Assembly (NCBI GenBank): GCA_048213135.1
Contig: PS015178.1
Coordinates: 120,069-162,911, forward strand
Origin: Reclinomonas americana ATCC 50394
Taxonomy: Eukaryota
DNA: 42,843 nt
Reading direction: 5' to 3'
Shown here: in pieces, positions 11,481 through 36,346 of the stretch
Layout of the letters: the number at the start of each line of letters is the position of its first letter
How positions within the stretch are numbered: position 1 is the stretch's first letter
Translations under genes and position numbers: made by a program
Notes under the pieces: generated by a model
Databases searched by the model: none
What the model saw: the letters and a program-made list of their open reading frames with translations, nothing else
What the model was told of the DNA's origin: nothing

Positions 11481-11974
<494 letters not shown>

Positions 11975-12537
11975 CTGCACAGTGAGAGAGAGAGAGAGAG
12001 AGAGTGAGAGTGAGTCACAATCAGCGAGAGANNNNNNNNNNNNNNNNNNNNNNNNNNNNNNNNNNNNNNNNNNNNNNNNNNNNNNNNNNNNNNNNNNNNN
12101 NNNNNNNNNNNNNNNNNNNNNNNNNNNNNNNNNNNNNNNNNNNNNNNNNNNNNNNNNNNNNNNNNNNNNNNNNNNNNNNNNNNNNNNNNNNNNNNNNNNN
12201 NNNNNNNNNNNNNNNNNNNNNNNNNNNNNNNNNNNNNNNNNNNNNNNNNNNNNNNNNNNNNNNNNNNNNNNNNNNNNNNNNNNNNNNNNNNNNNNNNNNN
12301 NNNNNNNNNNNNNNNNNNNNNNNNNNNNNNNNNNNNNNNNNNNNNNNNNNNNNNNNNNNNNNNNNNNNNNNNNNNNNNNNNNNNNNNNNNNNNNNNNNNN
12401 NNNNNNNNNNNNNNNNNNNNNNNNNNNNNNNNNNNNNNNNNNNNNNNNNNNNNNNNNNNNNNNNNNNNNNNNNNNNNNNNNNNNNNNNNNNNNNNNNNNN
12501 NNNNNNNNNNNNNNNNNNNNNNNNNNNNNNNNNNNNN

Positions 12538-13498
12538 TCTTTGGCACACGCGTCGTCGACACCGCCGTGACGAGCTTGGCTCCGTTGCGCGCAATACCCT
12601 CTGACTCGTACTTGCGACCGACCATGAAGCCGGTGATATTCTGTCGCTCCCCGGTTACAAAACTTGACGAACACAAACGATGACACACGACCGACTTGTG
12701 TGTGCGCGCGCACCTGCAAGAAGAGCAGCGGAACCTTGCGTTGCGAGCACAACTCGACAAAGTGCGCTCCCTTCAACGCCGACTCGGAGAACAGAATGCC
12801 ATTGTTGGCAACAATGCCGACCTGCTGGCCGTACAACTTGGCGAAGCCGGTGACGAGCGTCTCGCCGTACAGCTTCTTCCACTCGTCGAAGCGACTGCCG
12901 TCCACCACACGCGCAATGACCTTGCGGACATCGAACGGTTGGCGCAGATCGTGCGGCACAATGCCCCACAGCTCACGAGAATCGTAGCGCGGTTCCTCAA
13001 TCTACGATAGAGAGAGAGGGGTATGTGATTGATTATTTTGTGAACCGAGAAGCAAAGAAATGATGACCGCGTCACGTACCTCGCCAGCGGAGAAGCCACG
13101 CAGTGGGTCGTTGTGCTGGCGGTAGTTGAGTGTGGCGACGGCACGGCGAGCCAGGTAGAGAGCATGCAGGTCGTCGGTGGCGTAGTGATCGGTCACACCC
13201 GACGTGCGGCAGTGCACATCGGCGCCACCGAGATCCTCAGCCGACACCACCTCACCCGTGGCGGCCTTGACCAGCGGCGGGCCGCCGAGGAAAATGGTGC
13301 CATTGCCCTTCACAATGATTGATTCGTCGCACATGGCCGGCACGTAAGCGCCACCGGCCGTGCACGAGCCCATCACCACGGCGATTTGTGGAATACCCTG
13401 CGCACTCATGTTGGCCTGGTTGAAGAAGATGCGACCAAAATGATCGCGGTCGGGGAACACGTCGGCCTGGCGTGGCAAGTTTGCACCACCGCTGTCCA
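12538..13498 (-). CDS. MCCC2: Methylcrotonoyl-CoA carboxylase beta subunit, middle exons (inverted contig)
   Basis: '[31 protein letters not shown]', '[13 protein letters not shown]', '[24 protein letters not shown]', '[12 protein letters not shown]...TTRVPK'. Confidence 0.95.
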
Positions 13499-13560
13499 CT
13501 GTGCGCGCAGAGTTGGTGGTGAGAAGAACNNNNNNNNNNNNNNNNNNNNNNNNNNNNNNN

Positions 13561-14248: not shown

Positions 14249-17200
14249 TCAAAAGTCCAGTGGGAACTTGGCTTGCTGTGCTCGGCAGGCAGTGGTGAGT
14301 GAGTTGGCCACTGGCAATAGAAGAAAGACAGAGCTCACCGTGTAGCCAGACTGATGCAAGTAATTCAACTCGTCAGTCATGTACTCGGCATACTGCTTAC
14401 GGTTGACTCCGGCGCAGCACTCCTGAATGACGCGCAACAGGTGCTCAAACGTGTACGCGTAACTCGTCGCACCTGCACGAAAGGATGGTGAGCAACACAG
14501 ATACATTGGAGAGTATCAGCAGTGACGCGCACCGAGAGCCAGCACTTTCGAGGTGCGTACGCCGACATTGTGAGACTCGCTGCCAAAGACCACCACTGGC
14601 GTCATTGCACCGTCCCTTCGCATGTCGGTGATGTGGCTGTGTGGTGTCAAAATAAGCACTCAGAAGGAAACAATCTCGGCTGCGTGCGAACAGTGACGCA
14701 ACCTGCGCATGGCACGAAGCAACTGGCACGCTTGCGCCTCAGAGTTGATGCGGTGCGTTCCACCATAGTACGTGATCACTGTACGCTCGTAGTGAGAACG
14801 GACTGCACAGCCTGCTCTGCTCTTGCAACACGCACCGAGATCAAATGGGACTTGGGCCTTGGCAGCGCGCACAAGCACCCGAAGAGCTCGCTTGATGGTT
14901 GTTGCGTGTGTCACCACGGCGCACTTGGCGTCGGTGGTGTCCAGCCATTGGCGGCGAGTGATGAACAAGTAGTCGCGTACACATCGCTGGAAGAAGCGGG
15001 TGATGAGCACGCTCCACTTGTACTGCGGTCCGACCCACAGAATCTTGCGCTCGTACAGCAGGCGGCCGACTCTGCACGAGAGTGAGCACACTGCATGTAT
15101 TGCGCGTAAGAGAAGATTGGTGGGCACGACAAACTTGAGCACTGGATTGGTGGCCTCGTTGATTCTCGACAGGTAGCCTTCGACGCCGGTGAAGTCGGTG
15201 AATCCTGTACAGCACGACAACGGGTCAGTCACAGTCGCCAGGCACCAGTGAGTGCATTCTAATGCCACACCAACCTTTGGAGTTCCACGTCAGCACATGC
15301 ACACCCTCGTGCCTCCGATAGTACTCGATCTGCATGGGTTTTGCACGAATGAGCAACGAGCAGTCCTGAACAAAGAGATCTCCATCGTGTCACACAAAGA
15401 AACCTGATGCGGCTTCATGTCCGGCAGAATGGCATACGCCGCCGGCGTGTCGCCACCAAACATGGACATCATTTCTGTGGTCGCCAAGAATTATCAGCAC
15501 CGTGGGAGAACGCAGAATCACGCGTGCATGGTCTCACCACTGCGCAGCTCATTCAAGTAGCCGTCGCTGAAGCTGAAGCCGACAAACAGCAGCGTGCAGG
15601 TCGACATGACCGACATGAGGAATGTGCGATACGGTGTTCTGTAAAAAAAACAACAGTGGTCGTCGTCGTGAGCTTGGAATGCTTACTAAGAGTGAGAAGG
15701 CACCGACAATGGAAGAGTCGCACTTGTACAGCAGATTGCGGTATCCCTGACGGGTGAACACCAACGGACCAGTGCCCGTGGTCGAGCCGTGCACCTGCAC
15801 AACCGGTGGAACATTGGTGGCTGTGCACACTTGTCAGACCTCGCTGCCCTTCAATGCAAGCGCGACAGAAACTAACCATAGTCGAACTCTTCCGCCTTCA
15901 TCACCTCGTTCCACCAGCGGTCTACGGAAGGCGGACGGAGGAAAGAGCGGAAAGCGTCGGCGCCGTCGAACGGTGTCTTGCCCGACAGCAGCGAGTCGAA
16001 ATTGGTCGTCAACTGCAAAGCCAGAGATGAGATGTGCACGAATATGCGCATGACACGGCTCGATAATGAGTGCGACGCACGATTCCACGGAAAGGAATGG
16101 AGAGCAAGAGTCGCAAGCGGTTTTTCATCTTGGGTGGAAGAGTGCCACCTGCAGAGAGTGGCACAGATGACATCAGTGGTCTTACCAGTGTCGTCTACTC
16201 GACTGAGGATGCGGAGTACGCACCTGGCAGCGTCAGCACTTGACCACACAGCAGTTTGAGCTGCACGCGGTCAAAGTTCAGTATTGAGAAAATGTTGAGA
16301 GAGATACGATAGCACGAAACTTGCTCGGGACCGAGGTGGTCTTCGAGGACTTGCGCAGCGGCATCGAACTCACGAGCATCGAGGAACGACAGCGTGCCGG
16401 CAACATCGGCCTCGGAGAACTGATCCGGATATAGCTCGCGCGCGAGGCGGGCCATGTTGCGCACAAGGCCATCCCATCTATTTACCAAGTGGTGAGTTAG
16501 TCATATCCGACATGAGTGCCAACCACGACAACACGCAACGTGGGGAAACCGGCCGGTGCCGAGAAGCCACTGCCCACGAATGCCACCACATTGCCGCGCC
16601 GCACAGCTTCAAGGAGCTCTGGAGGAACGTCGCTGAGGTTGGCGGTGGTCTCGATGAGATCGAGATCCGTACGTTCCATCAACATTGGGCCGCCGGGTGT
16701 GAGCGGAGGCTCCGACAGGGAGCGCTCCATTTGCATGCCGAAAATGTCGTCGCTGGACGACCCAGAATCCGAGACTGCGCGCGGCAGTGAGCACCACTCA
16801 CAGCACAACAGAGACACGCCAAAACGCACACACGGATCCGGAATCCATCGACGACTGCGGCGTCTCCGATCGACTCGGCGGGTGTAATGGGGCTGCCGAT
16901 GCAAAGTCGCCGGGTTTGGCCATCCACGTGGGTACGCGCATGTGCGCTGCGCAGAACAAGTCGCCCTGAGGCCAGCACGATTGAGCAACGACGAAGAGTG
17001 CTCACACCAAACCTTCAACTTGCGATATCGCGTCGTCATCGCCGTCATCGTCATCGAGGTCGTCAGCAAACAGATCGTGGTCATCGGAAGCCGCCGCAGA
17101 ATCTGCTATGCAAGCAGTGTCGTGAGAAGAGGAACGGGGGAGAAAGCAGATACGCGCGCAGACACAGGCCACCTTGAAGCGGGAAGCGCCCGAACTTGGA

Positions 17201-18049: not shown

Positions 18050-21000
18050 TTAGTACGTGTCGCGGGCATACCCGTGCACCTGCATGGGCACCATGTAGTG
18101 AGCACGAAGGATGCCAACAAAATACGGCAGTGTTACTACCGATCGCGACTGATTACGAAACTGGAGAATTGCCTCGATCTGCCATGTATTCGAGGAGGTC
18201 GCGCTGCGAGGCAGCCGCACAGCACTCCTCCATGGCGCGCAACAGCTGCTCAAAGGTGTACGTGTAACTCGCCGCTCCTGCGCTCACACACGAACGTCAG
18301 CATCTGCCCAGCCGCAGTGGCCGTCCCGACCAACGCACCGAGATTGAGTACTTTGCGAACACGCATGCCCACATTTGGTGACTTGCTACCAAACACAATC
18401 ACTGGCGTCAGTGCGTCGTCGCCTCCGCGATCTGTAATGCGCCTGTACCACCAAGAAAACAGAGATTGGCATGGTGACAATGTGCACGACCACCGACAGT
18501 GTGACTACTCACGCCCGCATCGCTCGCAGGACCTTGCACGCCACGGCTTCGTCTCCCTGCTGCCGTGTGCCACCGTAGTGAGTGATCACTGCACAGTGTA
18601 CAATAGTGAGATGGATCGTACAGCGACACAGCGACGGCAGCTGCAGAAACGCACCCAAGTCGAATCCGCGCTCTCTCTTCAACAACTCCATCGCGCGACC
18701 CATGCGCGTAACAGCCGTCACAATGCAGCACTTGGGGTCACTCGTCTCCAGCCATTGTCGTTGAGTGATGAACAGGTAGTCGCGAACGCATCGCCGCAAG
18801 AACTTTTGAATCAGCACCGACCATCTGTGTGCATTTGTGAGTGTGAGTGCACGATCGCGATCCACCTCAGGCGCGACAAGCATCGGTGTGTCGCCGCAAC
18901 TTGTAATGTGGACCAATCCACAGCAACCGGCGCTCATGCAGCAAGCGTCCAATTCTGTCTCGTCTTTCAGCACAACTTGCAGCAACAGCGACAACAGAGA
19001 GACAGACGAGACCACACCGAAGTACTGGGTTGGTGGCCGCATTGATGCGTGACAGGTAGCCCTCCACGCCACTCCAATCCGTGTAACCTACTTGCGCTTA
19101 GCATCAACGAGCCGAAGGCACGATGAAAACAACGCAAATAAACCTTTTGTGTCCCAAGTCAACACATGCACACCCTCGTGTCGGCGGTAATGCGCAACCT
19201 ACAGCGACAGCAGTGAGCAAGACGATAAGCAGACTACTTTCCTCACGATCGTGTCGCTTCAAAACCTGGTGCGGCTCCATGTCGGGCAGGATCGCGTACG
19301 CTCCGGGTCGATCGCCACCAAACATGGACATCATTTCTGCGGGTACGGGGGATGAGATGCTCAGCACCCAGTTCGTTTCAGCGAGCAAAAAAACAACCGG
19401 CGTACCACTGCGCAGCTCGTTCAGGTAGCCGTCGGTGAAGCTGAATCCGATGAACAGCAGAGTGCAGGTCGAGAAAACCGACATGAGGAAAGTACGATAC
19501 GGCGTGCTGCGACGCAAGGAGTTGGATGAGATGACTTGGCATGCGCGATATGCAGCAACGAATTCTCCCCTTACCGATACAGCAGATTGCGGTAGCCCTG
19601 GCGGGTGAACACCAACGGGCCGTGGCCAGAGGTGGAACCGTGCACTTGCAAGATCGGTGGCACATTCGTGGCTGCCGCGTGAAGCAACAGTTGGTCGATC
19701 TTAGTCACAACGGAAGAGAGGAGAGGCAGAGCCACTCACCATAGTCAAACTCTTCGGCCTTCATCACCTGCCACATGCGATGCAAACAAACGAGTTAGAA
19801 CGGTCCTCCACGATGTGCATCACCAACTGTGATCATGATCACCTCGTTCCACCAGCGATCCACAGGAGGTGGCCGCAAGAACGAGCGGAACGCGTCGGCA
19901 CCATCGAATGGTGTCTTTCCGGGCAGCAGCTGATCAAAGTTGGTGGTCAACTGCGCGACCGATGACGTCAATATCAGCAGAACGGAACACCAGAAGAACC
20001 ATTCAGCATGGCACGCAACAATGCCGCGGAACGGAATGGAAAGCAGCAAGCGCAGTCGGTTCTTCATAGCCGGCGGCAGCACTCCGTCTGCACGTACAGA
20101 TACACAGTCAATGACAAGCACCGCAGGAGATCGATCATGTGCATGAGAACTCACCAGGAAGACTCAGTCCATCAGCCACGAGCGCCTTGAGCTGCTACAG
20201 GATGAGCAAGGGCATATCATCCACCACTTTTGCCGACACGCACCTGCTCAGGGCCCAGGTAGTCCTCCAACACCTGCGCAGCGGCATCGAACTCGCGCCT
20301 CCGGAGAAACGCCAGCGTGCTCTGCACCTTGTCCTCTTGAAACTGTTCCGGGTACACCTCGTGGGCGCGATGCGCGACCTGTCGCACCAGCCCGTCCCAC
20401 CTGCCCCAGCCGCTCGAGTAAGCACACCACCGCATCACCCTTGTCGGTGCGTCATGGCTCGACGCAACGTCGGAAAGCCAGCGGGCGCGGAGAAACCACT
20501 GCCGACAAACGCCACCACATTGCCTCGCGCCACCTCCTGCAGCAGCTCATCGGGAATGCCACTCAGCTCTGCCGTCGTCTCACACAGATCCAGATCCGAC
20601 CGCTCCATCTGCATGACACCACCGGCCGCACTCGGCGTCGATGGGCACTGTTCCGACAGCACACGCTGCAGGTCGGCGAAATCCTCTGCGCCTCCACCAC
20701 TGCCGTTGCTGGCTGTCGTACGCACACACACGCAGATGAGCAAGCAGCGTGGCACACAGAGAACCATAATAAGCACACACGCACAAGTGTCTGATGGCGA
20801 CGAGCGGCTGGAGTTGGGCGGACTCGGCACCAAATCTGGCTCCGCCGCCGCCCATGCGTCAAGACGCGGAGTCGCTGCGATACATAACACAGTGAGCATC
20901 GTTGCTATGTACACCGCGCACAGAGACAGACGCAACGCTCTTCCTCCTCTTCTCCCTCCATCAACTCAGCATGAACACCACTGCCACTGGCCACTGAATG

Positions 21001-22434: not shown

Positions 22435-22988
22435 TCACTTTATCGTCAGTGAACGCTGCGAGTCGGTGATTGTCGTGAAGCGGCCGCGATGATTAAAGTG
22501 CATGAAGCCGGGTCGATGAAACGTGCCCTCAAAGCTCCTGAGCAAGCAGCAGTGTGTGAGAGAGAGAGAGTGCAATCGGAGCATGACAGGTGGAGAATGA
22601 GCTCAACTTGCGCGCCAGCGAGTTGCGCAAGAGAATGGGTCGCAGTCGCCCTGTTTGCTGCACGTAGCCCCACACTGCCAGCGCAAAGCCTGCCACCGTC
22701 TCCACCAACACCTGCACATTGGCGCGCGGGGTGAGTGTTGACAAGCAAGCAAAGAGAGACTGAGAGTGAGAAGACGCACATCAAATGGCGGCCACGTCGA
22801 GTCATCCGCCGCCAACTCCGCGTCCATATCCGCCAGCAGCTGGCGATCTGTGCGTGCGTGTGTGCAGAGTGAGACATGTGCACACGTGTGTTTGCGCAAA
22901 GAAATGCAACGCAACAGTGCCAATAGGAGAACGCTGCGTGACATAGAATCAGCAGGCCAACGAGAACAAACACTTGCGCAAGTCGCAT
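22435..22988 (-). CDS. EMC5: ER membrane protein complex subunit 5 / MMgT family
   Basis: Spliced 'MRLAQVFVLVGLLILCHAAFSYWHYR...PPFDVLVETVAGFALAVWG...FHRPGFMHFNHRGR'. Two TM helices and the characteristic C-terminal F-x-H-R-G motif. Confidence 0.85.
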
Positions 22989-23148
22989 TTGAGAGAGAAG
23001 AGAACGAGAGAGGATGGACTCGTTCACCGATCCGATTGCTCGTGGATCACTCCCTGTCTCTGCTCAAGTCGTTGTTGTGGAGCACAGGCGGCGACGTTCC
23101 TCGCTCAGCTCGACGTCGTCACTAGCGCACGCACGACGAGCAAGGCGA

Positions 23149-23269
23149 ATGGACGTGGAAGTGCGGTGGCCGCACAGTCCCGCAGGCACCGCAGCAGTGG
23201 TCGAGGTCACTGGCAACTTCCCCGCATATGACGTTGCGTCTGTGCACACTGATTGACGCGCACACAAGA

Positions 23270-23322
<53 letters not shown>

Positions 23323-26312
23323 GCTGATCAAGTGCGACACGCACAGTGGCAGAGATTCGCACAACTGCGTTGGGACGATTCGGAACGAGTGCACAAGGTG
23401 CGTTTTCATTCTTTCTCTCTCGTTTGCTCGCTCTCTGTGTGCTGCTCATATGTGTGTGATGCGGATGGCAGGTCGTTTTGTCGGCGATTCCACCGGGAAC
23501 ATGGTGAGAGACGAATTTGCTACACATACGCGCGCGCGGTTTCGTTCACCGACTGTGTGTGTGTGTGTGTCCAGGGAATACAAGGTTGATTCTCTCTTTC
23601 ATACAGCGCATGTCAGTCGCTCAGTGCACATGTCTGATCGTCGCCGTGGTTGTGTTAGTTTCGCGTGGATGGTGAGTGGCGTGAGGACTGGACGCGACCA
23701 CGCGTGCAGAACAGCTTGGGATCGTACAACAACGTGATCCACTTGGAGCGACGGGCCATGTCGTCGTCGCCGCCGAGGCAGCGGTTGCGAGTGGGATCGG
23801 TGCACGAGACGGACCCGGCGATGCGGCATCAGGTGAGCTGTTGTCGCTCGCCGCGAGTGCCAGTCTTCTCTCTCAATCGCACGTGTTGTCTAGTCACCGG
23901 CCAAGGCGTCGGCGATTCCCGATTCGCGGGTGCGTGCTCGATTCGGTGTTGCTCTTTTGTGTCTGTGCCTTTGCTGAGCGGGGAGAGCGCGTATGTCACA
24001 GAGTTCGGCGTCGTGCGTGTCGGCGTCGTCCAGCACGTCGTCACTGGTGCGATGCGACGCTGTTCTCTCTCTTTCCTTGTCTCTCTTTCCTCATCGATTG
24101 TTGCCGAGCAGGAGGATGTCACTGATGCTGGGAGCATCACCAAGGAGGACTTTCTCACGCCGGTGCGCTTGTGGGAAATGCGACTGATGCGTCACTCGGG
24201 CACGTGGACCATGTGTGGCGAATCCGTGAGCAGCACACTGGATCAGCACCTGGCGGCCGGCGACACCAAGTTCTCGCTGGAGGATCGTGGAAGTTTCGTC
24301 GTGTTTTCGTTGCCACATCTCTCCTTCATCGGCGCGATGCTCACACACACGCACAGAGACGTACACTGTCGACCTGAAGAGCATGCTGCTGACGAACACC
24401 GCCGACGGCAAGGAGCGTGCACTGCGCTCCACCGAGTGCTACTCGTTCCCCGACAACTGCGCCCTGTTGGAGGCCATTGGCGCACCGCGTGGCTCCATGT
24501 GGGAGTACGAGACGCGCCAGACGTGGCGTCGATGCAGCGATGAGTGGTGCATGGCACTTGAGAAGTTGTACCAGATGATTCGCGCCGGCGAGGCAACCTC
24601 GCATTTGTTGCTGCTGAAGATTGGGCGAGCAAGGTGCGCGTGATTGCCGACAAGGTCGTGTGTGTCAGTACTGCCAAATTGACCGGCGATGCCGCCCAGA
24701 TTTCTCGTGGACCTGGCACGCTGCCACCAACGGCGACTCGACTCACACTCGGAGCGCCGATTAATATGTCGGCAGCACGCCGGCTCCACGGGACCGGTGC
24801 GTGAGAAGTTATTCACAGAGGAGAGTGAGCATGTAAGGAGGGTTGGCTGACTCCGACAATGATGGCTGCAGTTGTGTGCTCCGGACGACGTGGAGGGTGC
24901 GTTGGCTACGTTGCCGGTGGGGCGACCGCTGGCCGGCACTGCGGTGGACGAGGTGCTGTCCGACGGCGCCGCTTCGTCGGCTGCGTACTTTCGAGTGCCC
25001 ATGCTGCTGTCGGAGCCGCCGCACGATCACCTCAAAGTCTGTCAGGCGATACGGGATTTCATTGAGTATCGTGATATGCAAGCCCTGCGACTAATCCGCC
25101 GTCAAATCATGGTCCAGACCGGTGAGTCGCTTTCCTCGCCACGTTGTGCTGTCCCCCGAGTCGCTGACGTGTGGTGGTGTCTCGACATGATGATGGCAGT
25201 GGCTCGTGTGTACAACCTCTGGTTGCACCACGAACTGGAGGACAGCGAAGCATTTGTGCGTGCCGCACGCATGTACGCCTCGACTGCGGATCTGGTGGTA
25301 ACCGAGATGCCACGGTGTGACTCATTTTGTGTATGTTTGGTGGGATTGCATATCGAAGGAGAACTCATTCGTGCAACAGATACGAGACGCGACTGGAACT
25401 CGTCGGCGGTGACCCCATCGACAGCGCTATCGAGATGCAGGCCAGTGGCTACTCGCCCGCCGTAATGATGGTGGCCTCGTCGTCGACACCCGGTGGCGGC
25501 TTCACCCAGGGCAACAGCGGCCAAGAGGAGATGGTGTACAGAAGAACCTCCATGTTCCTCCACGGTAATCCGACTGCGTTGCCACTTCGTTCAACTTCGC
25601 TCCTCGTTTGTCTCACTTTTGTGCTCCACCAGCGCTGGATCCGCTGGGCATTGATGGTGCGCGCGACTGGCATTTCCCCTTGCCGCAATACGGTGTGTTG
25701 TACACGCCTGGCGTGCGCGTTTTGAGGCGAGGAGAGGATGCCGGCTACATGTGGTATCGCCCGCAGGGCGGCCGTCAATTGAATTTCATCACGGTGGCGG
25801 CATATGCCGATCCTCTCACTGTGCGCGGTCGTGATGGGTACGTGCTATGTCATTGTGTGCGTGTGAAGCTGTGAAGTGCCCTCATTCGGCACTGCCGGTG
25901 CAGTGAGCTGCACCTGAAGGAGGACTGGATCGTGGAGGGCATTCGCGAAAAGATCCGCTCACTGCTGCGGGTGGCTCTGCACAACGAACGCGACAGTGTG
26001 GTGCTGACGCCACTCGGCTGTGGCGCACACCGCAACCCACCCGGACACATCGCACGACTGATGCGCCACGTGCTGCTGGAGCCCGAGTTTGTCAATTGCT
26101 TTGCGTGGGTGCGAATCGCCGTCACGGAGGACGAGAACAGGTGAGAATGATCGCACGTCACGTGCACTGCACTGCGCATTGCATTCATGTGTGTAACCTC
26201 GCAGTGGTCNNNNNNNNNNNNNNNNNNNNAACCACACAATCCCGACGGCAACACGCTACCCTTCCAACGAGTCTTTGCAGATATCGTAACGAAGAAGCGC
26301 AGAGTCAAATGA
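23149..26312 (+). CDS. CBM48 (AMPK-beta-type glycogen-binding) + tandem WWE + DUF2263 bacterial-type poly(ADP-ribose) glycohydrolase
   Basis: Exons 23149-23232, 23347-23397, 23472-23503, 23575-23584 and 23659- give 'VEVRW...VEVTGNF...PPGTWEYKFRVDGEWREDWTRPRVQNSLGSYNNVI'. WWE-like 'TYTVDLKSMLLTNTADGKERALR' and 'WEYE...FLVDLARCHQRRLDSHSERRLICR'. PARG 'PGGGFTQGNSGQEE', 'GVLYTPGV', 'LGCGAHRNPP', ends 'HNPDGN...KKRRVK*'. Confidence 0.85.
23274..23321. repeat. (GT)n microsatellite in intron 1 of the CBM48-WWE-PARG gene
   Basis: Perfect GT dinucleotide run. Confidence 0.95.
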
Positions 26313-28847: not shown

Positions 28848-31800
28848 ATGTCTGCTGCTGCGGGTGCTGGTCGGCGACGCGCCATGTCGCCTCCGTCGTC
28901 GCGCAGTGTCTCCGAGCTGCACAGTGAGTTGCACAGTGATGACACAGCGGGAGGAGCGTCTGTGGACGGAAATGTGTCGCCAAGCAGCTCTGTGGGAGGC
29001 GGCGGTAATCATCGTGTGGCGTCGGTGCCGGATGTCACTGTTGTGCGAGGACACATCATTACGCCCTCCAATGCCTCCTCTCGGTGCGGAAAGTATCAGT
29101 GATTCTGTCTGCCTGTCTGTCTATGTGTGTGCGCGCACGCAAGAGTGATGCATTTGTCGGTGGATGCAATGTGGCTGACGACGGCGTGTTTGTTGTGGTT
29201 GGGAAGAATCACGCGACAGGAGCTGTATGCGCACGAGTGGGAGGGCGAGGCGCGGACGCCGGCGGAGGAGCGCGAGGTGCAGTTTATGATTGAGGAACGC
29301 ATGCTGCATGAGATGAAGAAGAGTGCGGTGAAGCGCGAGAAGCGACAGGCTCCGTTGCGTTGTTTCCTCGACTCGGCTTGTGTTGCGTTGCGAGGGAAAG
29401 TGGCTGACGGCAGTGTGTGGTGCGCAGGTTGGTGTTCACTGAGCTGTTGCCGTTTGCGCGCGACGGTGTCAAGAGCATCATTGAGGATGTTGCGTCTTGC
29501 TGTCTCACTCGCTGGATTCTGTTATCTCTCTCTGACGATGAGTGTGGTCTGCAGGANNNNNNNNNNNNNNNNNNNNNNNNNNNNNNNNNNNNNNNNNNNN
29601 NNNNNNNNNNNNNNNNNNNNNNNNNNNNNNNNNNNNNNNNNNNNNNNNNNNNNNNNNNNNNNNNNNNNNNNNNNNNNNNNNNNNNNNNNNNNNNNNNNNN
29701 NNNNNNNNNNNNNNNNNNNNNNNNNNNNNNNNNNNNNNNNNNNNNNNNNNNNNNNNNNNNNNNNNNNNNNNNNNNNNNNNNNNNNNNNNNNNNNNNNNNN
29801 NNNNNNNNNNNNNNNNNNNNNNNNNNNNNNNNNNNNNNNNNNNNNNNNNNNNNNNNNNNNNNNNNNNNNNNNNNNNNNNNNNNNNNNNNNNNNNNNNNNN
29901 NNNNNNNNNNNNNNNNNNNNNNNNNNNNNNNNNNNNNNNNNNNNNNNNNNNNNNNNNNNNNNNNNNNNNNNNNNNNNNNNNNNNNNNNNNNNNNNNNNNN
30001 NNNNNNNNNNNNNNNNNNNNNNNNNNNNNNNNNNNNNNNNNNNNNNNNNNNNNNNNNNNNNNNNNNNNNNNNNNNNNNNNNNNNNNNNNNNNNNNNNNNN
30101 NNNNNNNNNNNNNNNNNNNNNNNNNNNNNNNNNNNNNNNNNNNNNNNNNNNNNNNNNNNNNNNNNNNNNNNNNNNNNNNNNNNNNNNNNNNNNNNNNNNN
30201 NNNNNNNNNNNNNNNNNNNNNNNNNNNNNNNNNNNNNNNNNNNNNNNNNNNNNNNNNNNNNNNNNNNNNNNNNNNNNNNNNNNNNNNNNNNNNNNNNNNN
30301 NNNNNNNNNNNNNNNNNNNNNNNNNNNNNNNNNNNNNNNNNNNNNNNNNNNNNNNNTTTCACGCCGTGCTTCCAGAGCAAGCCACCGCCGCGATGGAATC
30401 ACAGCCCGCTCCTGTTCATCATGTGGGTGGTGGGCGTTTTGATTCGCTACCTGATCTTGTTCCCCATCAAGTTGCGTCCATGTGTGGTGTGTGTGTGGTC
30501 GCGTGCGCTCACCAGCTGAGTGGCCGCCTCGCGCAGGGTCTTGTTTTTGGTGGGTGGCACGCTCTCTCTCGGCATCGTGTTTGCCATTGTGTTGCTGCTG
30601 AAGAACGGGCCGAGCAAGACATTTATTATTGTGCGTGGGCGTCGGAGATGTGCTTGTCCCCACTCAACTCCGCTCGCTCACTGTGACGCTTACGCAGCGC
30701 AAACTGTTGCAATGGTGGGCCGGTGTCTTTATCCTGTCGTGGTTTGGTGTCATTCGCTACCACGGCGTCTTCCCCGCACGGCGAGCCAATCAGGTGCGGT
30801 GCGGTCGGCACTATTTCTGCCATCGCCTTTTTCTCACCTCGTTCTCGTGACAGATCTTTGTGGCGAACCACTCGTCGCTGACCGACTACATTCTGCTGCT
30901 GCACTTTTCGCCGTTTGCCAGCGTCGGTCAAGCCCACCCTGGGTTCCTCGGTGGGTGCATTTGTGCCACGAAGAAAGGCTGTGTCACCTAACTGACTGAC
31001 GCTCGTCTGCAGGTGCTCTGATCAAGGTGATCTCGCCCCTCGGCAACATCATGTTCAATCGGTAAGCCATGGCCATGATAGCCAGCATACATACTGATTG
31101 GTGGAGTGGTGTCTGACCCCCGGATCGCTGCAGCTTCGAGGCTCGCAATCGCCACTTGGTCACGGAGAGGTGCGACGCGCCGACAATTTTTCTTGCATCC
31201 GCCTGTGATGTGCGTGCTGACTGCGTATTACAAACAGACTGAAGGCACACATTGCCGACGTGAGCAACCCACCGCTGTTGATTTTCCCGGAGGGCGTCTG
31301 CGTCAACAATCAGTACACGGTGCGTGCACACACACAGTGTTTTTCTTTACCACCTATTTCTCTTTGGTACTAATATCATTGTGTCGACATGCAGGTCATG
31401 TGGCGCAAGGGAGTTTCGTGGTGGAGAATGCATTGTGGTCATGTAGGAAGGTGCTGAAACTCATGTGTGTCTATGTTTCTGCAGGCTTTTGAGATCGATG
31501 CCACGGTGTGCCCGGTGGCCATCAAGTACAACCGCAACATGTGCGATCCCTACTGGAACTCGAAGCGCGAGGGCTTCCCCACGCACCTCCTCCGGTGAGT
31601 GTGTACAAGAGACAAGCTGCTGCTTACGACGACTTGCTCACCTTCATGTTCCGTAGGTTGATGCGATCGTGGTTCATCGCCGCCGATGTGTACTTCCTCG
31701 AGCCACAGCGCATCCGCGACGGCGAGTCTCCCATCGACTTTGCGTCGCGCGTGCAGGTATGTTGTCGGTACCTGTCACCAGAGTGAGAGACCTGGCTGAA

Positions 31801-32235: not shown

Positions 32236-33678
32236 TCAGCTACAAATGACATCGCGGAACGGCGCCACATTTCCGTTGGGATTGTGACTCTTTCGACTGT
32301 TGTGGTCCTCGATGATGGCGAAACAGACGTATCTGCATGTGTGTGTGATGCGTCAGGTATACGAACAGAGGCGACGACCACTGGGAAGAGACGCACTGGA
32401 ATTTGCGGGCAAACTCATCCTCGGCAAACACCTCGCGGAACAGAAGTGCCACGTGCCGCGGCGGACAGCAGTATGCGCCACACCCAAACGCACTCAGCAC
32501 CAGCGCCGTGCGACCATGAGCCAGACTCATGCGCAGAATGGTGCGGATCTTGGCCTTCATGGCACGAATATCGCGTGCATCGGCCAGCTCTTGCCTGTAT
32601 CGGGATGAGAAGGAGCGGAGCGTGTCAAAAACACATGCGACGTAACCCTCGCAGTGGCGGGTGATGAAGGGCGGCCACGGCAACAAAGTCCATGAGGAAC
32701 GGCTTCTCCAAGAACGGATAGCCTGTGTGCGCGACGCAGTGAGTGCCCATACAGTAATTCCCACCATCTCCAGGCATCCCCGCTGCGAACCGAGAGCCTC
32801 GTTGCCGCGTATCACCGGCACACCGGGCGAGTACACACCACCCTCCAGTTCAAGCGGGTATCGCCAGCGGCGGCCAGAATCCAAACGTGCCGGATCCTGT
32901 GCAAGTGTCAACATGACAAGTCGATATCACGAGCGACACAACGGCACACGCACCACTAACGCCATAAAGTAGGCACTCCGGCGGAACAGGTTCTCCTCCT
33001 GTGCACCGGCACCACCCACCACGCCACCGCCCGGATGCCTCGCCGATGCCATGTTCAGCACGACCACGCTGTATCATGCAAGCTCAGCATGCAGACTTTT
33101 ACACAAGAATCCAACCAACGCAAACCTGTGGCCCACATCCAGCAACTGCTGCGCCTTGTCCAGACAGTCGCACTCGTCGACCTCAAACACCGTGTCGTAC
33201 CTGTGTGTCACGATCGAGTTGAACATGCAACGATCAAAGTCCGAGAATACTCCCTGCCTGCTCACCCCTCATCCTCCGACGCCACCGGAGCCGACACCAA
33301 CGCTCTCGAATCCGCATACATGACCGTGCCACGCGCAGCGCGCACACACTGCTCGAGGAACTCACCCGCCGACTCCATACTCGTCTCCACAAACGCGCGT
33401 CCGCCGCTAATCACATGCTCGCACGTCTGCACATACACCAGCTTGCGCAAGCGCCGCAGCGAGTCGCGCATGCGGTCGCCACCTCCGCGCTCCACTGCTG
33501 CATCAAAGGCGTCGCGCCACGCGCCTGCATTGTGCGAGCGCCACGGTGATCGAAGTGCGGCAGTCAGCATTTTGCGCTGTTGTCGCAGGAAGTGGCGAAC
33601 GGCGTCAACGGCATTGAGGTCGTCGCCGCAAATGTCGCTGTAGTCGTCGGAGGAGGATGAAGAGGCGGCCGAGGCCAT
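32236..33678 (-). CDS. Stand-alone DUF2263 / bacterial-type poly(ADP-ribose) glycohydrolase
   Basis: 'VVLNMASARHPGGGVVGGAGAQEENLFRRS', 'GGVYSPGVPVIRG', 'KIRTILR...LVLSAFGCGAYCCPP', ends 'HNPNGNVAPFRDVICS*'. Confidence 0.9.
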
Positions 33679-33803: not shown

Positions 33804-34076
33804 ATGCGTTTGGTGACAGTCAGCACGACGGCGCTGGATCAGTGGGCGATGGATTTCGAGGGCAACCTTGCTCGTTGCGTTTGCTTGTCTCCTCCACCAC
33901 ACGAGCGTGCTTGCATGCGTGTCTGCACTCGTCTGTGGCGGGAGACGCAGAGTGCGAATCTCCCTTTTCCCTCGCTGTGTTTGTGTTGTGTGTGATCACG
34001 CACTGCTGCACATGTCACGCACACTTTCCCACTCACTGTGTGTGTGTGTGCGTGCGTGTGCGCGACTGCAGGCACG
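33804..34076 (+). CDS. NADSYN1: Glutamine-dependent NAD+ synthetase, first exons
   Basis: 'MRLVTVSTTALDQWAMDFEGNLAR' matches the eukaryotic NADSYN1/QNS1 N-terminus. Confidence 0.9.
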
Positions 34077-34358: not shown

Positions 34359-35030
34359 CGTGTGCGGACTGTCCGTGGCAAACAGCTCCTCGCACGTCTC
34401 CGATCCAATCACCACTCCGTCGCTCAACTCGAGCACGGCCTCACCAAACGGAACTGCAGCACTCCACGACGTGAGATCACTGTGCGATCGCCGTGAGTGA
34501 TGTGACAGGCAGACCTTCCGTCTGCCCCGTGGCCTCCTGCACAAAGAGCGGCAACGTGTGCTGCTCGTACTGGAAGCGACGATCCCACGGCACGAACCAG
34601 CGACCCTCACGATAGTTTCTATCGCGCATCGTGAGACAAGTGCTCGTTGCTGAGTAAGTTGTCCTCGCGAAGAACGCATACCCATCGTTGGCCAGCGACA
34701 TCTTTGGTCGCAGCAGGAGGATCTTGCCGTTGAGGACCCACGCGCGACAGTTGTACCGCACTCCACGATGGATCACCGGCATGCCGACATCGACCAGGAT
34801 GTCTTGGCTGTGCTCCGACTGCAGCACCTCGCACAGCGCCTGCCACGAGTGCATCTCCGTGTCGGCCTCCAGAAAGTGATCCTCGCATCCATAGCCTGCG
34901 CGGTGTGCATGAGTGGTCAGTGATGCAGCAGCTGCAATGATCATGCATGGAGGCACGTGCCTGGGAGCTCCAACTCCGGTCCCAATCGGTATCGCGCGCC
35001 CATTTCGCGCGCGGCCTTGATGCTGCCCAG
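34359..35030 (-). CDS. NADSYN1: Glutamine-dependent NAD+ synthetase, nitrilase-domain exons (inverted contig)
   Basis: '[23 protein letters not shown]', 'LLRPKMSLANDGNYREGRWF', 'IGSETCEELF' (Glu-Lys-Cys triad motifs). Confidence 0.95.
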
Positions 35031-35212
35031 NNNNNNNNNNNNNNNNNNNNGAGAGAGAGAGAGGGAGAAAGCAGAAAGGGAAAACAGAGAGGCACTGACG
35101 GATTCCGAGGGAGCAGACAGCCACACACACACATGAGCGCCCACACGCTTAGTGAGAGATAGGAAGCCATCAATGGAAACGCCTTGGCCTTCCTTCTATC
35201 TCTCACACACAC

Positions 35213-36346
35213 CTCTTCGGCCAGCTTCCGTGCTCGTGTGCACGTTTCCTCCGAGCTGCTCTCAGCGATTAGTGAAACAATGGCGGCACCAACACACCAC
35301 GAAGGCTGGCATACCTATTCACAGTGCCCATGTACGTGGTGTGCATGATGCGATTGGCAAACTCCTTGGCCTCGAGTGGCACATACTCCGGGTCGCCCAC
35401 GATGCGACGAGCGTCGGCAATCACTCGCTCGTTGCCGATCTTGGCAGCAGCGGCCACCAGCTGGCACATGGAGCCCACAATGGCACATGTGGACGACGAA
35501 TCGGCTCCACCAGACAGCGGCAAGAAGAAGCCACCTGCACAGATGACGGTGAATGAAGGGCAGGGAGGATAGAGAGAATGGTGACAGGTACGCACTGGCA
35601 CCCGATCGCCGCAGGTAATCCCACAGCCAGCAGGCCGGACCGAGGGCAATCTCCTCCTCCGGGCAGTGATAGAAGACATCAATCGGACCTGCTCGACCCA
35701 GAGTTGTCAGCAATGCAGAAAGAGTGTAGTGCAGTCGTGAGTGCGCAACTGGAGATGGTGCGGCTAAAGTGCGCACTGGGCTCGGTGAGCGAGAAATCGA
35801 CCGCAATGCGCGGCAGAACCTGACACTCGGCCGCCTGTGCACCATGGCTCATGGCCGCTCCACGACGGCTGCGTATTTGATCCAGGTCAATGGTGGCAGT
35901 GACGACCTGCGTCGCGAGAGTCATGTCAGAGGAGAAAATAGCCCTTGTCTCTCTCGCTCTTTCTCTCTCACACCCACCTCAATGTCGTTGACCGAGAACT
36001 GACTGCCCTGCGCAATCACGTTGCCGTTGACCGAAACCATGGCGCAGCCGTCGAAATACAGGCGGCCGCCGTCGCAGCCCTGCTGGTTGGCATACAGATA
36101 CACACCTCCACACTGACAGAAGACGAGATCATCAGCAACCACATCCACACATGAATGAGAGTGGACGCACCTTGGCAGTGGAGCCATTGATAAGCTGCAC
36201 GCGCTGGTGCAGCTTGCGCAGCTGGTGATGACTGCCGGAGCCATTGGCCACAATGTCCACACCTGGTGCACACGCGCACCTCGTGTTCAGCCGAGGGCAC
36301 ACACTACACACACTCGCGCCCTGTACCAACCATTCAACCACATCAG
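35213..36346 (-). CDS. NADSYN1: Glutamine-dependent NAD+ synthetase, middle exons (inverted contig)
   Basis: '[12 protein letters not shown]', '[18 protein letters not shown]', '[18 protein letters not shown]', '[12 protein letters not shown]'. Confidence 0.95.

Follow-up and report, generated by a model that had tools for sequence, protein, structure and literature searches.

A Predicted Gene of Reclinomonas americana Joins an AMPK-beta-Type CBM48 Module, Two WWE Domains and a Microbial-Type PARG

Why would an enzyme that removes poly(ADP-ribose) (PAR) carry a module of the kind that binds glycogen? The poly(ADP-ribose) glycohydrolases (PARGs) are best known for their part in DNA repair, and the AMPK-type CBM48 for its part in energy sensing and in the metabolism of glucans. 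The question is raised by a predicted gene, here called G1, in a 42,843-nucleotide stretch of Reclinomonas americana ATCC 50394 (assembly GCA_048213135.1, contig PS015178.1; "the window" means this whole stretch). The domains of its product are, in order, an AMPK-beta-type CBM48, a Ser-rich linker, two WWE domains, a microbial-type PARG (DUF2263) and a basic tail. Our proposal, held tentatively and with somewhat less than even confidence, is that G1 encodes a glycogen-tethered reader-eraser of PAR. Coordinates are collected in Table 1.

Results

One Predicted Spliced Frame

Do these domains belong to one gene? All 15 introns of the 16-exon model have GT-AG borders and lengths of 61-114 nt (23 introns in four other genes of the window measure 52-75 nt). 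From the ATG at 23149 the spliced frame runs for 661 codons without a stop, until the run of N at 26210-26229; the protein would consist of these 661 amino acids, a few unknown residues in the gap and a 26 amino acid tail. We trained splice-site and coding-versus-intron models on the four other genes and their 23 introns; because this set included PARG2, the paralogue described below, the models may be biased toward PARG exons. The coding model is positive, in the modelled phase, for 14 of the 15 exons scored (the 32-nt exon 3 is the exception) and negative for 14 of the 15 introns (the exception is intron 9). The junctions that are key to the fusion are those of introns 5-8, and their donors fall in the 93-99th percentile of the 272 GT sites in G1. 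For exons 6 and 7 the model calls coding sequence and for introns 5-7 intron, with the donors of these introns at the 96-99th percentile and the acceptor of intron 7 at the 99th. The frame of exon 5 is also open when unspliced, with 294 codons reaching into exon 8 and no stop between. An alternative donor of exon 8 at 24287 was rejected (score -2.8 versus 6.5).

The single frame from CBM48 through WWE-WWE to PARG that the earlier note had proposed is therefore upheld by the GT-AG exons, the stop-free codons and the intron statistics. CBM48, WWE pair and PARG very probably form a single fused gene, and we infer that it is spliced in this way in vivo. There is a very slim chance that two genes are present instead: a short CBM48 gene, terminated at 23975 if intron 6 is retained, and a WWE-WWE-PARG gene whose initiation codon would be the in-frame ATG at 24052. 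Both signals exist, but a mere 75 bases separate them and contain 45 nt with a coding score and proper splice sites, the donors of introns 5-7 and the acceptor of intron 7 are as strong as stated, the ATG sits 5 bases inside a strong donor, and no poly(A)-like hexamer occurs in 23585-25200 (a weak test).

The last exon is interrupted by an assembly gap. Its 20 N are not a multiple of three, and reading them literally shifts the frame of the tail. We rejected the literal length, since the 20-N run is a placeholder that occurs three times in the window and since the frame ending in KKRRVK is the best of the three on a DUF2263 profile (55.6 bits versus 40.7 and 39.0). This frame also restores a motif common to PARG2 and most references. 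The frame of the 26 amino acid tail thus rests on homology. The basic, nuclear localization signal-like end noticed earlier is present in it and has no counterpart in PARG2, with the reservation that it lies behind the gap.

A Predicted 10-nt Microexon and the CBM48 Module

The Pfam, TIGR02452 and PDB library scans were made exon by exon, and the spliced protein was analyzed with our own scripts. Exon 5 matches AMPK1_CBM (PF16561; E 1.7e-4, 22.2 bits against a cut-off of 26.8, profile positions 51-80 of 85); exon 1 alone has no Pfam match. In PDB the 15 best matches of exon 5 are AMPK beta chains, the best being AMPK beta-2 (E 0.0012), and the exon aligns with residues 127-157 of full-length AMPK beta-1. 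All ten of the best named matches in the ESM Atlas are AMPK1_CBM (top 0.92), although the recognition value of this result is low. We probed the N-terminal half of the module with a GlgB-type CBM48 profile built from 34 segments, and on the spliced protein this half aligns (E 0.012).

Does the module depend on the microexon? Between the ATG and exon 5 we enumerated 3892 splice paths free of stops; 2614 of them received a score with the GlgB-type profile. The G1 model ranks second with 5.9 bits; the absolute scores are weak. The top 14 paths all use the microexon, and the best path lacking it reaches 2.3 bits. Its donor is at the 95th percentile and its acceptor at the 97th. The first residue of exon 5 aligns with F127 of AMPK beta-1, so that the last codon of the microexon encodes the equivalent of K126. 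The earlier reading, in which a microexon reveals an AMPK-beta-type CBM48, is supported by this residue and by the ranking of the paths.

According to two studies (PMC2642990; PMC6274970), W100, K126, W133, L146 and T148 of AMPK beta contact the sugar, and mutation reduces binding. The equivalents in G1 are K59 (K126), W66 (W133), L79 (L146), G80 (G147) and S81 (T148, Ser for Thr). Because K126, W133, L146 and G147 are matched, with T148 as Ser, the targeting to alpha-glucan suggested in the earlier note is reasonable, and stays conditional; we consider it quite probable that this CBM48 binds glucan.

The C-terminal half of the module thus resembles the CBM of AMPK beta-1 and beta-2 in alignment and in contact residues. 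It differs in having approximately four extra residues between the first aromatic residue and the lysine, and in being joined to an ADP-ribose enzyme. We rejected the identity of G1 as an AMPK beta subunit, since it has no AMPKBI domain: there is no match in the 11 exons scanned, and exons 2-4, 6 and 7 are too short to hold one. The module may nevertheless have come from an AMPK beta gene. A Ser-Ser-Ser-Pro-Pro run after the CBM (23760-23790) aligns, at a nonsignificant score, with the same run in the linker of AMPK beta-2.

Two WWE Domains, One with Pocket Residues

Exon 9 scores 26.9 bits against WWE (PF02825; cut-off 21.1), summed from two stretches of 16.1 and 15.9 bits. The C-terminal half of the profile is matched before the N-terminal half, which argues for two WWE domains rather than one. 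The remaining halves match exons 8 and 10 by eye; neither exon has a Pfam match alone.

We mapped the pocket residues by eye onto the chain of RNF146. WWE2 keeps Y255, R258, Q307 and R316, where Y255, Q307 and R316 are the equivalents of RNF146 Y107, Q153 and R163; F298 stands in the place of Y144, so the hydroxyl of Y144 is lost. At the places of Y107, Y144, Q153 and R163, WWE1 has M167, Y207, Leu216 and R225; the buried Gln is missing, with no Glu. WWE2 thus retains residues of an RNF146-type pocket that WWE1 lacks. The two WWE-like repeats of the earlier note stand as two domains, but only the second keeps the adenine pocket. PMC8853533 reports the same division in ZAP, where of two WWEs only the second binds PAR, and WWE2 of G1 probably binds PAR as well. 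The likeness to tandem-WWE proteins (Deltex, ZAP/PARP13) and to RNF146 ends at the partner domains, which are ubiquitin ligases and PARP domains in those proteins and an eraser in G1.

Single-sequence folds of exons 8 and 9 (pLDDT 52) gave no Foldseek match at E 0.001; the highest probabilities listed (0.21-0.25 over 20 columns) belong to the WWE domains of TRIP12 and HUWE1, and we do not count them as evidence. Two-sequence viral WWE profiles gave E-values of 0.002-0.03, and the one checked against shuffles failed to beat them; built from so few sequences, they are too thin to establish the halves on exons 8 and 10. In the genome sampling, PF16561 was found in 0 of 151, and below its cut-off in 4 of 300 genomes, and PF02825 in 0 of 301. 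Among the viral-contig patterns were two true WWE proteins, an RNF146-type RING-WWE protein (L069:1-726) and a WWE domain interrupted by an insertion of 43 residues (L066:226-771); the rest were chance or unrelated matches.

A Microbial-Type PARG with Atypical Active-Site Neighbors

Approximately residues 395-684 are placed among the microbial-type PARGs by four lines of evidence: Pfam (exon 13 against PARG_cat_microb, PF10021, 42 bits; cut-off 23.5); TIGR02452 (exon 13, E 5.7e-6 and 26.1 bits; exon 15, E 6.5e-7 and 29.1 bits; these are single-exon scores, and the cut-off of 50 is for whole proteins); PDB sequences (D. radiodurans PARG, E 5e-6); and our own PARG profile of 10 sequences, on which the spliced protein scores 143 bits. 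G1 is 38-39% identical to its nearest references. The signature GGG-x7-QEE is intact (G489-G491, seven residues, then Q499, E500 and E501), and its GGG and QEE are invariant in all references having the column. The claim of a DUF2263 PARG with an intact signature is thus confirmed, and by score and signature G1 is a member of PF10021 with atypical active-site neighbors.

How atypical are they? The earlier note named two deviations, one before the catalytic loop and one in the GCGAH loop. Both are present and PARG2 is canonical at both, but there are more than two: Met481, Val482, Gly498 and His623. In particular, neither the conserved Phe/Tyr of the diphosphate loop nor the Asn before the catalytic loop is kept, though these are not formal criteria of the family. 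Ile652 recurs in a single reference row. The signature, in general form GGG-x6-8-QEE, distinguishes erasers from readers, and Phe227 of T. curvata, which corresponds to His623, sets the orientation of the ribose; reader macrodomains have another residue there (PMC8699189). In D. radiodurans PARG the loop binds the diphosphate through main-chain atoms (PMC6445106), which by analogy His623 would not disturb. On balance we give a little better than even chances to the prediction that G1 hydrolyzes PAR. The ribose-cap region lies at the assembly gap. In PARGs the ribose cap sets the exo or endo mode.

In comparison with known microbial-type PARGs (DUF2263/PF10021/TIGR02452; T. curvata 3SIG and the D. 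radiodurans 5ZDA series), G1 shares the macrodomain, the helical extension, GGG-x7-QEE and the GCG loop, and with a Bacteroidales-and-phage-like subgroup the C-terminal HNPxGN motif. It differs in the CBM48 and tandem WWE in front, in its introns and in four conserved positions, which in G1 hold Met, Val, Gly and His.

PARG2, a Canonical Paralogue in the Window

PARG2 has the usual residues and is approximately 50% identical to its nearest references. G1 and PARG2 are 34% identical over 288 columns and have one intron in common in column and phase, possibly a second. In a quick tree the end branch is 2.87 for G1 and 1.22 for PARG2; the tree does not settle whether the two are sisters. From the usual residues of PARG2, the identity, the shared intron and the branch lengths, it follows at the level of sequence comparison that G1 is a diverged duplicate of a microbial-type PARG, evolving faster than PARG2. 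Unlike its paralogue, it is multidomain, with altered residues, a longer branch and the basic tail. The model of PARG2 exon 2 (33302-33266, minus strand) needs an unusual GAG acceptor. Members of the subgroup of PARG2, complete DUF2263 PARGs, also occur in large phage contigs (L001-L012 and L015; 28-410 kb).

Is the Architecture Found Elsewhere?

We found no homologue of exon 9 among 189 candidates, in the ESM Atlas or in metagenome contigs; of exons 11-12 with their intron among 1.84 billion representatives; of exon 5 in metagenome and viral contigs; or, by tblastn, in plasmids and phages, or in PHROGs. Exons 9 and 1 have no match in PDB sequences. The search with exon 15 found nothing among 59 candidates and also missed known DUF2263 proteins, which means that exon-sized searches are insensitive. 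We also assembled long DUF2263 proteins (530-2000 amino acids; 315 matches from 8000 candidates, an apparently prokaryotic and biased sample). Among the best 120 of the 315, none carries a Pfam label of CBM48 or WWE and none is matched by residues 1-395 of G1. These bacterial proteins (P0001-P0120) are often fused to PF13306, PF03747 or PF08837.

The rare extra domains of PARGs listed by Perina 2014 (PMC4245714) are PBZ, a Nab2 finger, G8, transmembrane segments and L32e; glycogen, CBM and starch are absent from its text, and architectures shown only as pictures may have been missed. Its PBZ-PARG of Adineta vaga is a precedent for reader plus eraser, in that a PAR-reader module is fused to PARG, but this reader consists of PBZ fingers rather than WWE and there is no carbohydrate module. 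In the literature on DUF2263, PARG and WWE, no title or opening of an abstract among the matches listed mentions a fusion like that of G1. All of its parts are known, and we have not found the combination CBM48 + WWE-WWE + PARG described; it appears as a lineage-specific architecture of one genome. The earlier suggestion that the architecture is undescribed holds for this literature and for the best 120 of 315 long DUF2263 proteins.

An NAD/ADP-Ribose-Rich Neighborhood

Between 14.3 and 38.3 kb the window contains, besides G1 and PARG2, two tandem SIR2_2 genes (both at 30 bits, over the cut-off) and a glutamine-dependent NAD synthetase. The first exon of the synthetase, at 33804 on the plus strand, is 125 bases from the start of PARG2 (33678, minus strand) in a gap-free stretch, so a shared promoter is likely. 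That roughly twelve genes should include three NAD-related families is suggestive of an NAD/ADP-ribose-rich neighborhood, a pattern noticed after the fact. Interspersed are a Sel1-repeat gene, an RRM gene and a gene that we take to be acyltransferase-like, the last with an 18-nt exon at 31395-31412. A small spliced gene at approximately 22450-23000 (minus strand) is apparently divergent from G1, with a short upstream region in common.

The window is an intron-dense eukaryotic scaffold (approximately 58% GC) with 12 N gaps, and its order is unreliable at them. The pieces between N gaps at 34359-36346 and 11481-13529 are inverted relative to their genes. The NAD synthetase has its start (33804) and end (37.1-38.3 kb) on the plus strand and residues 52-122 on the minus strand; a carboxyltransferase-like gene, presumably methylcrotonyl-CoA carboxylase beta, seems to be split in the same manner.

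Table 1. Features of G1 and of related genes (positions in the window)
Feature	Position	Strand	Remarks
Whole gene G1	23149..26312	+	16 exons, about 690 aa, predicted
G1 exons 1-4	23149-23232, 23347-23397, 23472-23503, 23575-23584 (10 nt)	+	
G1 exons 5-8	23659-23832, 23894-23929, 24002-24046, 24112-24292	+	
G1 exons 9-12	24357-24633, 24700-24796, 24872-25121, 25200-25314	+	
G1 exons 13-16	25380-25564, 25633-25837, 25904-26140, 26205-26312	+	
CBM48 / AMPK1_CBM-type module	23149..23757	+	aa 1-~90, exons 1-5; W29 (or Y27), K59, W66, L79, G80, S81
10-nt microexon	23575..23584	+	Predicted; completes Trp56 codon, then Glu-Tyr-Lys; Lys = K126 equivalent
Ser/Pro-rich linker	23758..24165	+	aa ~91-162; end of exon 5, exons 6-7, start of exon 8
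WWE domain 1	24166..24430	+	aa ~163-229, degenerate; C-half Pfam E 0.015, profile 44-66
WWE domain 2	24494..24772	+	aa ~251-321; N-half Pfam E 0.017, profile 2-31
Microbial-type PARG (DUF2263) with N-terminal helical extension	25007..26291	+	aa ~375-684
Catalytic loop	25468..25530	+	M481-V482 for Asn-Met/Phe; GGG-x7-QEE (G489-E501); G498 for Ala
Diphosphate-binding loop GCGAH	26016..26030	+	His623 for Phe/Tyr (T. curvata Phe227)
20-N assembly gap in last exon of G1	26210..26229	.	True length uncertain
Basic C-terminal cluster KKRRVK + stop	26292..26312	+	Candidate nuclear localization signal
PARG2, single-domain paralogue	32240..33678	-	338 aa, canonical motifs; head to head with NAD synthetase
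Two tandem SIR2_2 paralogues	~14300-17100, ~18100-20900	-	Each with unassigned C-terminal domain

Discussion

From the frame, domain order, residues and paralogy of G1 described above, we propose the following for its glucan binding, PAR binding, catalysis and localization. A microbial-type PARG would have been duplicated in this lineage, and one copy would have gained CBM48 and two WWE domains. Through its CBM48 the protein would attach to glycogen or to some other store of alpha-glucan; WWE2 would hold a PAR chain by an internal unit, with WWE1 as a structural partner; and the macrodomain would trim the chain from its end using E500/E501. According to PMC4030884, bacterial-type PARGs bind chain ends, so that an internal-unit reader such as WWE2 would complement them. 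The eraser may then accumulate at the sugar store, or wait there to be released as the store shrinks, while PARG2 would do the general PAR work. In short, G1 may work as a microbial PARG to which a reader of the Deltex/ZAP kind and an anchor of the AMPK kind have been added.

Several points weigh against this proposal. At the level of the gene model, exon 3 scores as noncoding, the best phase of exon 10 is by a small margin not that of the model, and three introns (4, 5 and 11) have weak acceptors. The sole exon that matches AMPK1_CBM stays below the Pfam cut-off of 26.8 bits, because it holds only part of the profile, and the equivalent of W100 (W29 or Y27) is placed by motif only. The insensitive exon-sized queries revealed no relative of the N-terminal portion, and the fusion is known from one genome. 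The branch leading to G1 is more than twice as long as that of PARG2. Met481, Val482, Gly498 and His623 occur in 0 of the 154 rows of the reference alignment (from 145 proteins; 52 rows are nonredundant at 80%), although this set is narrow, mostly one bacterial subgroup plus phages, so that 0/154 overstates their rarity; the residues expected at these places are Phe/Tyr in 46, Asn in 45 and Ala in 44 of the 52 nonredundant rows. Finally, glycogen storage by this organism is presupposed, and our full-text literature searches returned no paper linking PARG to glycogen particles.

The main rival accepts the fused protein and changes its activity: the macrodomain would bind ADP-ribose without cutting PAR, or would cut another linkage, with mono-ADP-ribose on protein, nucleic acid or sugar as candidate substrates. 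G1 would then act as an adaptor that recruits ADP-ribosylated molecules onto glycogen, or as a hydrolase with a specialized task. This fits the four unusual active-site neighbors, the long branch and the replacement of the Phe227 equivalent, as in the reader macrodomains of PMC8699189; the canonical PARG2 nearby would free G1 from the old job, and Perina 2014 (PMC4245714) notes bactPARG copies in eukaryotes whose signatures are altered and whose activity is not known. However, GGG-x7-QEE is retained together with S484 and the GCG backbone, the His is still a ring, and the reference set is narrow as stated. We regard the rival as unlikely, yet as one to be taken seriously.

Could the CBM48 be a mobile head with no special link to PAR? 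G1 would then be a fast-evolving WWE-WWE-PARG of an NAD/ADP-ribose defense or stress neighborhood, its CBM serving protein contact or binding the glucan of prey or a pathogen. Two SIR2_2 genes, two PARGs and an NAD synthetase inside 24 kb are in keeping with such a setting, which also contains unrelated genes and was recognized after the fact. The sugar-contact residues are kept, suggesting selection for glucan binding, and we consider the explanation rather improbable.

Another possibility is a glycogen sensor, in which glucan keeps the enzyme cytosolic or inhibited and loss of glycogen releases G1 to the nucleus via KKRRVK, so that PAR removal and NAD economy follow the carbon supply, e.g., in starvation or encystment. 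Glycogen synthase, laforin and debranching enzyme shift to the nucleus upon glycogen loss, though our literature search returned no source for this. In its favor are the basic tail, which PARG2 lacks, the NAD synthetase and SIR2-like genes nearby, and the view, in PMC2642990, of the AMPK-beta module as a regulatory glycogen sensor and not an anchor alone. The tail, however, lies behind the assembly gap, and a 70 amino acid flexible linker plus two WWEs between CBM and enzyme argue against direct allostery; we judge the sensor improbable.

It is tempting to go further than the proposed reader-eraser and to hypothesize, with slim chances of being right, that glycogen particles carry an ADP-ribose mark of their own, on granule proteins or on the glucan, and that G1 is its dedicated eraser within a clustered NAD/ADP-ribose module. 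The CBM48 would sit on the granule, WWE2 would read the chain, and the His, Met and Gly changes around the distal ribose would fit a new leaving group. If so, the SIR2-like genes, PARG2, the NAD synthetase and G1 would tie carbon storage to NAD signaling.

What may the gene mean more generally? WWE and CBM48 modules are readily shuffled in protists, and the fusion, seen in one genome, may for that reason be a local curiosity. Since domain fusions point to pathways, G1 also predicts that PAR is turned over at the glycogen store or under its control, a link that we did not find in the literature searched. As predicted, it would combine an eraser and a WWE reader in one natural protein and would offer a naturally occurring His at the Phe227 position; the canonical PARG2 at the same locus would serve as a ready control.

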